DNA of 64,000 nt from an uncultured Gemmatimonadales bacterium (GCA_963716255.1 OY970303.1:64001-128000), one strand, 5' to 3'; shown: positions 48,193-57,667, counted from the first letter of the stretch. Translations and numbers: made by a program. Notes: generated by a model from the sequence alone, not told the origin.

Positions 48193-51100
48193 TCAGGCGT
48201 TGAGCGCGCGCTGGCCGCAGGCGAGACAGGCGCCCACGTTCACCGGACCGACCGCCTGGTTCTGGTCGGCGACGGTGCTCCATCCCAGGGCCACGTGCCC
48301 CATGAGGTGCGCGACGTTGACGTCGCCCTGGCGTCCGCCGTGGTTCGCGACGAGCGGCGTGTTGCGTCGCATGGTCCAGCCCCGCGCTTCGTACTCGGCC
48401 ACGGCCAGGGGGTGCGGGTGGCCCAGGTTGCCCAGTGTCTCGGCGGGGTAGCAGTGGTCGTTCCCCGTCAGCACTCCGTACGAGTAGGCGATGCGGCCGG
48501 GGGAGGGGCCGCCCCCGACGGCGGCGGCGGCGGCGGCCGGGGCGGTGGTCTGCTGCTCCACCGCCCGCAGGGCGGCGTCGATCGCCTTGCCGGACACGCC
48601 GGCTTGCCGCTGCGCCTCGCCGATCATGGCGTTGATGGCGGCCTCCCGCGCCGCCGCCTGGATGGTCACCGGGGCGGGCCAGGCCGCGCCCAGGGCGGTC
48701 GCCATCACCGCGGCGACGTCGCCCCGCAGCGTGGCCACGTCGCCGAGCGGCGGCGCCAGGCCCAGCCCCACCAGCGCCGCGTCCATCTCCTGGTTCGCCA
48801 CGGGTGGGAGGGCGGGGTTGACCGCGACGGCTGCGGCCGCGGCGGCGGCGCACGCGAGCCGGGACACCACCAGGACGTACGCCGCGGGGAGCGGCGGGTT
48901 GTCGAAGGCGGGGACCGTGAAGCGGGCCGCCCGCACGGCGGCGATCTCCACGTTGGCGGGGGTGAGCGCGGCGGCGACCACGCCGGCGAAGGCGACCATG
49001 GGATGCGACACGCCCAGGGTGGCGAGGGAGGGATGGACGGCCTCGACGGCCGTCTCGATCTCACCGCAGCGCGCCGCGCTGAACGCCATGGCGGCGTACT
49101 GCGCCCGCTGGCGGACGGCCTCCATCGTGAGCACGCTTCCGCGCTTGACCGTCGCGAGGGCGCTCTCGGCGGTCGCCAGCGGCGCACCGCCGGCGAGGGC
49201 CACGCCGAGCACGCCGGCGTTCGCCCCCAGGTTGGCCGGACCGGCGGCGGGTCCGCCCCCCCCGTTGACGATCAGCGCGACCGCCGCCGGCTTCAGGTCG
49301 TCGCGCAGGGCGTCGAGGCCAAGCGCGGCCTGCCGCAGCGCGGCGATCACCGCGCGCACGGCCGCCAGGGCGGCGTCGGCGGCGGTCGGGGCGGGCACGG
49401 AGACCGCGAGGGCCGCGGCGACGGGCCTGGCGTACAGGGTCGTGAAAGCGGGGGCCAGGGGGTCCACCGCCGCGGCGACCTGGCCCACGGCCGCCACGGC
49501 CCGCCCCACCGCCACCGCGCCCGTCCTCACCACGGCGAGCGCGGCCCGGGCCGTGGACTCGGCCCGGTTGGCGGTGAGCGGGGTGACGAGCGGCGCGATG
49601 GCGACGCCGCCCAACGCGCCGGCGCCGTTGATGTCGGCGGCCACGTTCGGCGCGCCGGCCATGGCGGACATCACGGCCCGCACGGCGGCGCGCGCCACGT
49701 TGGCGGCGGTGGCGGGAACGGCCGCGGCGCCCCCCAGGCGCATCGCCAGGTCGGCGGCCACGGGGCGGGCGAACAGGAGAGTGTTGGCCGCGGCGCCGCC
49801 CGGGACCACCCCGGCCACCAGGCCCACCGCCGTGGCCGCGCCGAACTCCAGCGTCTTCACCACGGCCTCCACCATCAGCGCGTCCACGGCCTCGAAGGCG
49901 AGCGCCGCGCCGCGCAGCCGCACCCGGGCGGCGGCGGCGGCTTCGGCGTAGTCCTGCGCGGAGCCGGTGCCGATGCGGGTGCGGGTGCCCAGGATGGCGG
50001 CGACGGCCACCTCGGCGGCTTCCGCCGCGGGGGCGAGGGTGGACTGCACGGCCGCGGCGGTCCCGGCGGCCAGGTTGTTGTAGTCGTTGCCCACGAGGCG
50101 CGCCACCTCGGCGGCGTTGCCGGCCTGGACCTGCTCGTAGCTCGCCGCGAGCACGGCGGCGGCGGCGGAGGCCCCCGCGTGGGCCACGTGCGTGAGCAGG
50201 CCCACGACCGGGGCTCCCGCCAGGTGGTTCGCCACCGCCGTCACGGCGCTGGCCGTGCTCCCCGCGCCCACCGCGTCCGCGACCGCGGGAGCGCCGGCCG
50301 CCGCACTCCCCGGCGCCCACGGAATGCGGTTGACGGCCAGGAACTCGCCGTTGTTCTCCATGTAGGAGCCGTGGTGCATGGCCGTCATCCCCACCACGAC
50401 CGGGAGCACCGGCACGGCTCCGAGCGGCTGCAGGGAGGGGACGTAGTCGTAGTTGGCGTCCCCGTTCAGCAGGACGAACCGCTCGCCGGGGGCGAAGGGC
50501 GGACTGCCATGGACCAGCCCGAAGTTCGCCGGCTCCAGGGCGGCCTGCACCACGCCGGCGGCCGCGGCCCCGAGCTGGCCGGCGAACGCGGTCGCGGCGG
50601 CGGCGGCGCGCGCGGTGCGGCCGGCCAGGGTGGCGGCGTTCCCAGCGGCGACGGTGCCGAGCGCGGCGTTCGCGGTGGCGGTCGCCATCCAGGCCGGCAG
50701 GACGCCACCGGGGACGGGGGCGAGCCCCAGCAGCGCCCCCACCCCGTTGATATCCGCCACCACGGCGGGCGCGGCGACGGCACCCTGCTGCACGGCCACG
50801 ACGGCGCGCAGCGCGGCGTGCGCCGCGTCGTCGGCCGTCACCCAGCCGGCGGGCGCGCCCAGCGCCGCCGCCACCGACCTGGCGTACAGCGCGGCGTGCG
50901 CGGGAAGCACGTGGGCGCCCGCCACCACGTTCACCCGCGCCGCGGCGGCGGCGGCCCGCCTCGTTTCGGCGGACATCCCCACCGTGAGGGGGTGGAGAGC
51001 CCCCGGATCCACGGGGTGGGCCACCCGGTCCACTACTTCCGGGGAAAAGTAGGCGAACGCGCCGGCCGCGGCGGCGGCGCGCGCCGCGTTCCCGCCGGCG

Positions 51101-57037: not shown

Positions 57038-57667
57038 ATGCCCCGCAGCCACACCGCGGCGCACGGAGAGAGCGTCGAGAGCATCGCGTACGCCAACGGG
57101 CTGTTCTGGGAGACCGTGTGGGACGACCCCGGCAACGCCGCGCTCCGCGAGGAGCGCGTGGAGCCCAACGTCCTCGCCGCGGGCGACGTGCTGGTCGTTC
57201 CCGACCTGCGCCCCAAGGAGGTGGAGGCCGCCACCGGCCGGCGGCACGTCTTCCGGCGGCGGGGCGTTCCCTCCGTGCTGCGCGTGCGGCTGCTGGAGGG
57301 GAGCACCCCCCGCGCCGGCCTGGCCTTCACCGTGGACGCCGGCGGGAGGCTCACCCGGGGGAGCACCGACGCCGACGGGTGGGTGGAGGCGTGGCTGATG
57401 CCCGACGTACAGCGCGGCGAGCTGCGGATCGACGCCACCGGGGAATCGTATCCCTTCCAGGTGGGCACGGTGAGCCCCGTGCAGACGCCGCTGGGGGTCC
57501 AGACCCGCCTGCGCAACCTGGGGTACCTGGGCGGACGGCCCACGACCGCCGCGACCCCGCGGGCCGTGGAAGCGCTGCGGGCCTTCCAGCGGGCCAGGGA
57601 CCTCCCCGCCACCGGCGAGCCGGACGAGGCCACGCTCGCCGCGCTGGTGGACGCCCACGGGAGCTGA
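57038..57667 (+). CDS. LysM-like / transthyretin-like / peptidoglycan-binding protein (paralog 2)
   Basis: GGAGG RBS; 209 aa, colinear with 53029-53658; [22 protein letters not shown]. Confidence 0.82.

Follow-up and report, generated by a model that had tools for sequence, protein, structure and literature searches.

Positions 48,193 to 57,667 of a 64,000-nucleotide stretch of DNA (the window) from an uncultured Gemmatimonadales bacterium (GCA_963716255.1, OY970303.1:64001-128000) carry five genes in two divergent units, which we read as probably an orphan cargo island for the same genome's type VI secretion system (T6SS). A transthyretin-like (TTR) tether and two 209-residue adaptors with LysM-like, β-sandwich and peptidoglycan-binding (PGB) domains, LysM1 and LysM2, would load two predicted DNases: a metallo-β-lactamase (MBL) protein, cargo 1, and a dual nuclease, cargo 2. 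We hold the T6SS link itself with high confidence. That the 209-residue proteins are loading adaptors or co-effectors is likely, while strand addition from their linker to the TTR domain is a tentative suggestion, somewhat short of an even chance. The features are as follows.

48193-52995, minus strand: cargo 1, 1600 aa; open reading frame (ORF) with coding codon bias
52312-52950, minus strand: residues 16-228 of cargo 1, its N-terminal domain; a marker by which the LysM-linked clade within the MBL family is recognised
53029-53658, minus strand: LysM1, 209 aa; predicted adaptor for cargo 1
53659-53816, no strand: intergenic gap of 158 bp between the divergent units; presumed promoter region, read from sequence
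53817-54500, plus strand: TTR tether, 227 aa; a Pro/Ala linker joins an N-terminal domain of ~95 aa to the TTR-like domain at the C-terminus
54282-54497, plus strand: TTR-like domain of the tether; the genome has no other clear copy of it
54492-57681, no strand: 3.2-kb indel holding cargo 2 and LysM2; missing from the same-genus genome G197 (locus L034)
54497-56980, plus strand: cargo 2, 827 aa; dual predicted nuclease
57038-57667, plus strand: LysM2, 209 aa; predicted adaptor for cargo 2

The neighbourhoods of the 209-residue family tie it to T6SS spike genes. In the best 80 of 108 LysM-family loci, with genes called by our own script, vgrG occurs within 10 kb in 24 (20/55 among loci of at least 15 kb), and TTR is present in all 24; TTR without vgrG is found in 15 loci and neither in 41. 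For scale, VgrG and TTR queries hit 2 and 1 places, respectively, in the 8.4-Mb genome of the island itself. The usual order is tssH-vgrG-TTR-LysM-cargo, often with tssH/F/G near, and the 24 vgrG loci comprise the order vgrG-TTR-LysM (14, with PAAR between in one), VgrG-TTR fusions (5), Sorangium vgrG islands (4) and one looser arrangement. The linked spike genes that were tested encode T6SS VgrG (TIGR03361 in 2/2). In addition, the RefSeq annotation of a Thiodictyon plasmid places PAAR, vgrG, LysM/PGB and DcrB together, and its VgrG ends in this TTR. The first-pass annotation had named, as telling against its own reading, homologs free of any link to injection genes or variable cargo; what we find is vgrG linkage in these 24 loci, together with varied cargo.

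The genome encodes a T6SS cluster at C1:6.31-6.33 Mb, 6.2 Mb from the island, in which TssA, B, C, D, E, F, G, H and K as well as TssL exceed NCBIfam cut-offs, TssM falls below, VgrG and DUF4280 are recognised by Pfam, and TssJ gave no clear match. In this cluster (L082:237-914, G000) a MORN-repeat gene sits between vgrG and the DUF4280 gene, and no toxin gene was recognised. Across 201 genomes of the order, a tally that includes two unpublished genomes and kin that are not independent, the 209-residue family occurs in 10, and TssC is present in 10/10 of these versus 37/191 family-negative genomes (47/201 overall; background within the taxonomic family, 28/67). Genomes of vgrG-less loci carry TssC in 43/49 cases and a tube gene of an extracellular contractile injection system (eCIS) in 19/49; 49 of 56 such loci entered this count, leaving out six repeats of represented genomes and one locus with tssC. 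Because of this difference we choose the T6SS over an eCIS, and the earlier proposal of an orphan effector/adaptor module for one or the other, encoded elsewhere, is supported in its T6SS form.

The tether offers a plausible connection to the spike. Its TTR domain is homologous to C-terminal extensions of VgrG, to the products of genes directly after vgrG and to PAAR-TTR fusions. A stand-alone TTR gene of 100-147 aa is present in 14 loci and matches in sequence the tail of the 5 VgrG-TTR fusions, and in the family relatives L101-L104 TTR is fused to PAAR and diverges from the LysM gene as in the window. TTR is also fused to the LysM protein in L080 and to cargo 1's N-terminal domain in L111/L112. 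Among 46 TTR members, Pfam finds CarboxypepD_reg in 21 (best E 3.7e-5) and SpaA in 15 (best E 1.2e-4). For the tether's N-terminal domain, Pfam, NCBIfam and Atlas gave no match; its homologs are Sorangium proteins (E 5e-6; hhalign 85%; reverse search agrees) whose genes sit in vgrG-TIGR02270-DUF2169 operons. The position of one tether between two cargo units suggests that both units share it. We note that a ~110-aa helical-looking family occurs just before TTR genes, or fused to TTR (L042), at L002:6762, L003:6098, L075:9362, L080:9301, L042:13450 and L110:4430; it is possibly a third type of tether head, the L110 member being assigned by eye.

LysM1 and LysM2 are colinear, as the first-pass annotation had it, and 44% identical, both with ATGRRHxFRRRGVP and both ending AHGS. 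In the family alignment each consists of a LysM-like domain, a conserved basic linker, a β-sandwich and a PGB domain. The AlphaFold2 model of LysM2 (40 sequences; pLDDT, the predicted local distance difference test, 91) has a LysM-type fold, an extended coil at 55-78, a six-strand sandwich at 79-141 and a three-helix PGB C-terminus. LysM2 matches PF01471 (E 3.5e-13); family-wide, Pfam recognises PG_binding_1 in 38/40 members and LysM in 13/40, with no Pfam LysM match in either window copy. When the LysM2 model was searched with Foldseek, nothing passed E <= 0.001, and only weak immunoglobulin/prealbumin, LysM and PGB rows came up. The sandwich is homologous to the tether's C-terminal TTR domain (profile comparison 95%, E 1.9e-8). 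A shared R-x-G-x-[TA]-D-x-[DE]-G pattern had been attributed to three island proteins: the homology is real by profile comparison, but the literal pattern occurs in 2/3 (LysM1 residue 106, TTR 191), and it has 28 occurrences in the six-frame genome.

Linker and sandwich differ in how they are conserved. The linker motif (66-78) is the family's most conserved stretch, equally so within and between clades (0.71-0.73), whereas the sandwich is the most clade-specific part, at 0.39 and 0.51 within clades and 0.30 between. The linker is net positive in 93/94 LysM proteins and the TTR net negative in 46/46. Because the linker is conserved across clades, the TTR is always acidic and the sandwich is clade-specific, we infer a division of labour in which TTR, the constant partner, is bound by the linker and the cargo, which varies, by the sandwich.

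A quick tree of 94 LysM proteins, 56 of which carry cargo labels that we assigned, follows the cargo with 19 changes versus a shuffled mean of 42 (0/200 shuffles as low). LysM1 belongs to a 16-row clade (Shimodaira-Hasegawa-like approximate likelihood ratio test, SH-aLRT, 97) from four named phyla that contains all 11 MBL-adjacent members, and LysM2 to a 4-row clade (SH-aLRT 99) with three other nuclease-adjacent members. Local tandem duplication was rejected because the two fall in different clades, each clustering with cross-phylum relatives beside the same cargo. The earlier term "paralogous" is better read as meaning family members that were acquired separately. Elsewhere in the family, the LysM gene is followed by one for a LysM-less sandwich-PGB protein of ~170 aa (L016:711, L049:15187, L061:6152, L065:10612, L077:8316, L149:9654), and then by a ~385-aa gene and a HEAT-like gene, which together make a conserved sub-module.

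A loading mechanism can be proposed in four steps: (I) the tether's N-terminal domain would attach to the VgrG/PAAR spike and present the acidic TTR, as fusions of the same TTR to VgrG and PAAR suggest; (II) the basic linker of each 209-residue protein, H-x-F-R-R-[RK]-G-V-P, would add a β-strand to the TTR; (III) the clade-specific sandwich of each would grip its own cargo; and (IV) once the spike has fired, target DNA would be cut by cargo 1 (the MBL) and cargo 2 (the dual ββα-metal enzyme), as predicted from their motifs. The contact in step II resembles one in the account of A. baumannii VgrG17, which describes a model in which a basic Tae17 strand beside LysM completes the acidic VgrG17 TTR (PMC11796386). 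The LysM and PGB domains would be either cell-wall binders or protein surfaces, and self-protection might, speculatively, come from latency or partner binding instead of a dedicated immunity gene. As to the target, another bacterium is the likeliest, at about an even chance; a microbial eukaryote is rather unlikely, and extracellular DNA more unlikely still.

Cargo 1 is laid out as an N-terminal domain, an MBL fold that two Ala-rich inserts (residues 521-825, 37% Ala, and 896-1495, 33% Ala) divide into three pieces, and a C-terminal CxxC. Pfam gave no direct MBL match. A profile of 19 stand-alone relatives matches cargo 1 at 370-524, 838-880 and 1498-1590, in order, and finds its best PDB matches in ComEC/Rec2 (E 8e-6). 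H427, D429, D431 and H432 are invariant in 5/5 aligned, and cargo 1 reads SHSDEDH where relatives have SHWDxDH. On sequence grounds cargo 1 is a ComEC-like MBL fold with ordered metal-binding motifs and a predicted activity. The inserts are a family trait: in the 29 long relatives that were parsed, some few of them with a short second insert, the medians are 284 and ~329 aa, versus 14-26 aa in stand-alone relatives. They are not an obvious pore, because only three stretches of cargo 1 rise above 1.8 in a 19-residue hydropathy scan.

The N-terminal domain of cargo 1 marks MBL proteins that mostly have a LysM neighbour. In a metagenome scan from the cargo side, which gave 41 MBL loci, a LysM gene adjoins 7/9 loci with the domain (6/7 after merging duplicates) and 0/32 lacking it. 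The domain also occurs as a separate ~240-aa protein and is faintly like the N-terminus of stand-alone MBLs (46%, 33 columns). We rejected it as a general secretion tag for many toxins, since 46/48 long matches have it joined to an MBL core. Stand-alone SHWDxDH MBLs of 420-530 aa occur near patatin genes in 4 loci (L118, L122, L126, L138); in L126 one lies beside an E2/E1/JAB gene like those of CBASS (cyclic-oligonucleotide-based anti-phage signalling systems), and in L124 a STAND NTPase is nearby. Another stand-alone subgroup (L140) precedes DUF6603. PADLOC gave no match for the 19 stand-alone relatives; the MBLs at these loci are possibly uncharacterised defence effectors.

Cargo 2 begins with Cys/His repeats, five in number and each ~35 aa long; its first 245 aa contain 36 Cys. 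Site 1 is of the DRGH-type non-specific endonuclease kind (D306-H309, N332, E341; PF13930 above cut-off, E 4.8e-8), and site 2 is HNH-like (H570, N580, N584, H592), read from the motif with no library match. Both are invariant in 4/4 aligned; cargo 2 has, as judged from these residues, two intact ββα-metal sites, and nuclease activity is predicted. The order TTR-nuclease-LysM recurs in L002 and L003. Because a scan of 401 genomes of the phylum from the side of the nuclease returned no genome but the query's own, the link between nuclease and LysM2 rests on three LysM-selected loci and the indel. Other cargos upstream of their LysM gene (L052:5950, L069:6918) also begin with Cys-rich CxxC stretches.

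Beyond these two, the cargo is varied. Pfam on 80 adjacent proteins finds OTU (4), amidohydrolase, Het-C, NS_2 nuclease and MBL (3 each) and single matches to M23/Tlde1, Ntox3, Amidase_2, PAD, reprolysin, S8, EEP and Scabin-like domains; many matches are below cut-off, and about half of the 80 proteins have none. Unrelated cargos (PAD, S8 protease and unknowns) at L014:4104, L019:10643, L037:10675, L054:4145, L072:10676 and L074:10647 share a ~70-aa N-terminus starting approximately W-T-x-I, for which 4/6 pass a leave-one-out profile test (E < 3e-4); it is a candidate delivery tag.

The island raises the question of what allows a genome to keep DNase-like cargo when no immunity gene accompanies it. 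None was called beside cargo 1 or cargo 2, so neither shows the make-up of an antibacterial effector-immunity pair. Among relatives, scored on the downstream side only and with no control set (51 LysM-cargo pairs, 6 unscorable), in 8/45 scorable cases the cargo gene has, on its own strand and no more than 120 bp downstream, a gene of <=300 aa, one of the 8 encoding a PAAR protein and one HAD hydrolase-like by eye, and in 15/45 an opposite-strand gene follows the cargo gene. Latency is one candidate answer, put forward because ComEC-like MBL nucleases of phage defence are insertion-gated pro-enzymes and stand-alone relatives lie near patatin and CBASS-like genes. The idea is weakened: PADLOC gave no match, no protease is linked (none of trypsin, caspase or S8 type in the island or among 46 scanned neighbours of relatives), and equivalence of the inserts is a conjecture. 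A eukaryotic target is the other candidate answer, suggested by the OTU and PAD cargo. Both domains can have eukaryote-directed roles.

Several observations weigh against a T6SS cargo island of this kind. Within the fetched DNA, 56/80 loci lack vgrG and 41/80 lack TTR, and the loci and genomes in the linkage counts are not independent. The genome's own VgrG, at C1:6313207, is without a TTR extension, the tether's N-terminal domain has no known partner, and the TTR profile matches the VgrG2b and EAEC (enteroaggregative Escherichia coli) VgrG1 TTR regions in the PDB only weakly (6h56; 6sjl residues 783-832; E 0.011 and 0.2). No TssC showed up in 6/49 tested genomes, mostly incomplete metagenome-assembled genomes (MAGs). 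L109, a long MBL without LysM beside it, is a true miss, and stand-alone MBL relatives sit near defence genes. An absent immunity gene is atypical for antibacterial DNases, and the clustering of the LysM tree could reflect joint transfer of neighbours instead of binding. The genome also has two eCIS regions, eCIS tube genes occur in 7/8 family relatives, and 750 bp separate a LysM gene from the gene for an eCIS sheath in L105. These eCIS genes, and the faint resemblance that the LysM domain bears to a tail-tube initiator of phage (9g8s, E 0.12), are what could be said for the cargo riding an eCIS, which we consider most improbable given the T6SS identity of the tested spikes, the frequent tssH/F/G genes and the lower count of tube genes.

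Among the other alternatives, the one we take most seriously, though still improbable, accepts a T6SS cargo and makes the 209-residue proteins mainly inhibitors, immunity proteins or co-delivered cell-wall anchors instead of loaders. It would explain why the island has no other immunity candidate and why small linked downstream genes are so few, and it is consistent with LysM clades that track cargo and with the frequency of PG_binding_1 and LysM domains. One conserved family beside unrelated catalytic domains argues against it, as do the position of the LysM gene between the TTR/vgrG gene and the cargo and its fusion to TTR in L080; the two roles need not be mutually exclusive. An anti-phage island with latent nucleases finds precedent in ComEC-like MBL pro-nucleases whose two gating insertions are described as acting in defence (PMC12799240, PMC12642450), and in the patatin, CBASS-like and STAND neighbours of the stand-alone relatives. 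We judge it very unlikely: PADLOC matched neither the 10 proteins tested nor the 19 stand-alone relatives, the island has no protease or sensor gene, and it is with vgrG and PAAR that the small partner proteins are associated. Finally, the enzymes might be released by the T6SS or by lysis and, tethered to the wall, scavenge extracellular DNA without being toxins. The missing immunity gene, the PGB domains and the ComEC domain, characterised as an extracellular phosphodiesterase/nuclease in the account of that protein (PMC8579336), fit such a role, to which we give hardly any weight because the cargo set includes Ntox3, Het-C, OTU and amidase domains and is polymorphic and swapped between close relatives, as one would expect of conflict systems. 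A T6SS cargo island with loading adaptors remains the likely reading.

The gene calls underlying this reading are as the first-pass annotation gave them: all five ORFs stand in two divergent units with coding codon bias, their GC content at third codon positions (GC3) being 0.93-0.96 versus 0.80 and 0.64 in two overlapping shadow frames. A 996-aa frame for cargo 2, running back through the TTR gene, and a 1903-aa frame were rejected as shadows; the best start for cargo 2 is the ATG at 54497, in an ATGA overlap with the tether gene's stop. Gene calling likewise confirmed that no vgrG, PAAR, hcp or small immunity-like gene is present at the island, the genome's VgrG and DUF4280 matches lying outside the window. 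The classical adaptor domains DUF4123, DUF2169 and DUF1795 have no Pfam match in the island proteins and are extra neighbours in L101, L042, L011 and L149. No sigma-70-like promoter was found in 53659-53816, where a promoter/terminator scan was empty, and a hydropathy scan of the first 35 residues, made with signal peptides in mind, reached a maximum of 1.66. PHROG and phage records gave no informative match, and Atlas no usable one.

The island has host-like GC, and each of its genes is single in the genome, except the two 209-aa proteins. It is flanked by an aldo-keto reductase gene on one side and a flavin oxidoreductase gene on the other. Among 8 other genomes of the genus, G197 alone carries cargo 1 together with LysM1 and the tether, the sequence to either side of the indel being 94-97% identical; for the remaining 7/8, among the matches listed, the right flank is covered and the island is not. 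The nearest named relative is a Longimicrobiaceae MAG. To the left, a ~270-bp dispersed repeat (47921-48191) touches the cargo 1 stop; it resembles a miniature inverted-repeat transposable element (MITE) or a repetitive extragenic palindrome (REP), matches the genome at 799 places over at least 130 bp and at 29 over at least 240 bp, and is abundant in genus relatives too. A transposase (DUF772 + DDE) at 45507-46652 lies ~1.5 kb left of the island, and a 1195-aa GGDEF-AAA-TPR STAND-like protein is encoded at 33965-37552.

The 209-residue family provides a marker for orphan T6SS cargo without vgrG, PAAR, MIX or FIX nearby, and reaches little-studied phyla (Gemmatimonadota, Acidobacteriota, Planctomycetota, Myxococcota, Verrucomicrobiota and others), its carriers including Nannocystis and Aquabacterium strains; many of the LysM-adjacent cargos are without a Pfam match. 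The division into a constant linker for TTR and a variable sandwich for cargo is a testable rule for how one spike could carry unrelated enzymes. A bolder extension, which we consider unlikely, would be a widespread and undescribed two-tier relay (spike, mobile TTR tether, LysM/sandwich/PGB adaptor, cargo) firing immunity-free pro-toxins across phyla, with MBL inserts and zinc-binding repeats silencing the enzymes until cleaved or unfolded in the target. If true, such a relay would re-use the gated-nuclease logic of anti-phage defence for attack, in soil and aquatic bacteria of many phyla.

The closest precedent for the adaptor is Kalk_10460 of Ketobacter alkanivorans, a LysM gene between vgrG and toxin, for which co-immunoprecipitation is reported to show that the toxin binds VgrG only with the LysM protein (PMC10673891, Wang et al. 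2023). Compared by description only, relatives of the island share a stand-alone LysM gene in that position, and this orphan locus does not. Unlike the island, the Kalk_10460 locus has a vgrG and an immunity gene, and its description includes neither a LysM-sandwich-PGB architecture nor a separate TTR tether; PG_binding_1 appears there among vgrG-locus domains, placed only in gammaproteobacteria. The tether resembles RIX-TTR (PMC10435454, Kanarek et al. 2023), likewise described as an orphan tether: a targeting domain forms its N-terminal part, and its C-terminal TTR is of a kind that other proteins carry in fusion with PAAR or VgrG. According to that description, RIX belongs to Vibrionaceae, the prediction for its TTR is direct binding to the effector N-terminus, and an immunity gene follows; in the island, in contrast, a LysM protein appears to intervene and one tether lies between two cargo units.

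A TTR-like loading platform is common to the island and to the VgrG internal adaptors described for EAEC VgrG1-Tle1, P. aeruginosa VgrG2a/2b and A. baumannii VgrG17-Tae17 (PMC7376260, PMC11796386). Tae17, as presented there, has an Ig-LysM order inside the effector, whereas the island encodes a separate LysM-linker-sandwich-PGB protein whose family serves many unrelated cargos. Similarly to the ComEC MBL nuclease and to HamM, Avs1a and CanC (PMC8579336, PMC12799240, PMC12642450), cargo 1 has a ComEC-like MBL fold. In the accounts of the latter three, two insertions block the site until cleaved (PMC12799240, PMC12642450); cargo 1 differs in inserts of 300-600 aa that are Ala-rich and only conjecturally equivalent in position, and in having no partner protease and no PADLOC match. 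The open-access literature, searched also for immunity-free MBL effectors, yielded no description of the three-domain 209-residue family or of the two cargos. In sum, known parts, TTR tethers and LysM bridging proteins, are combined here in an apparently undescribed, mostly immunity-poor module.

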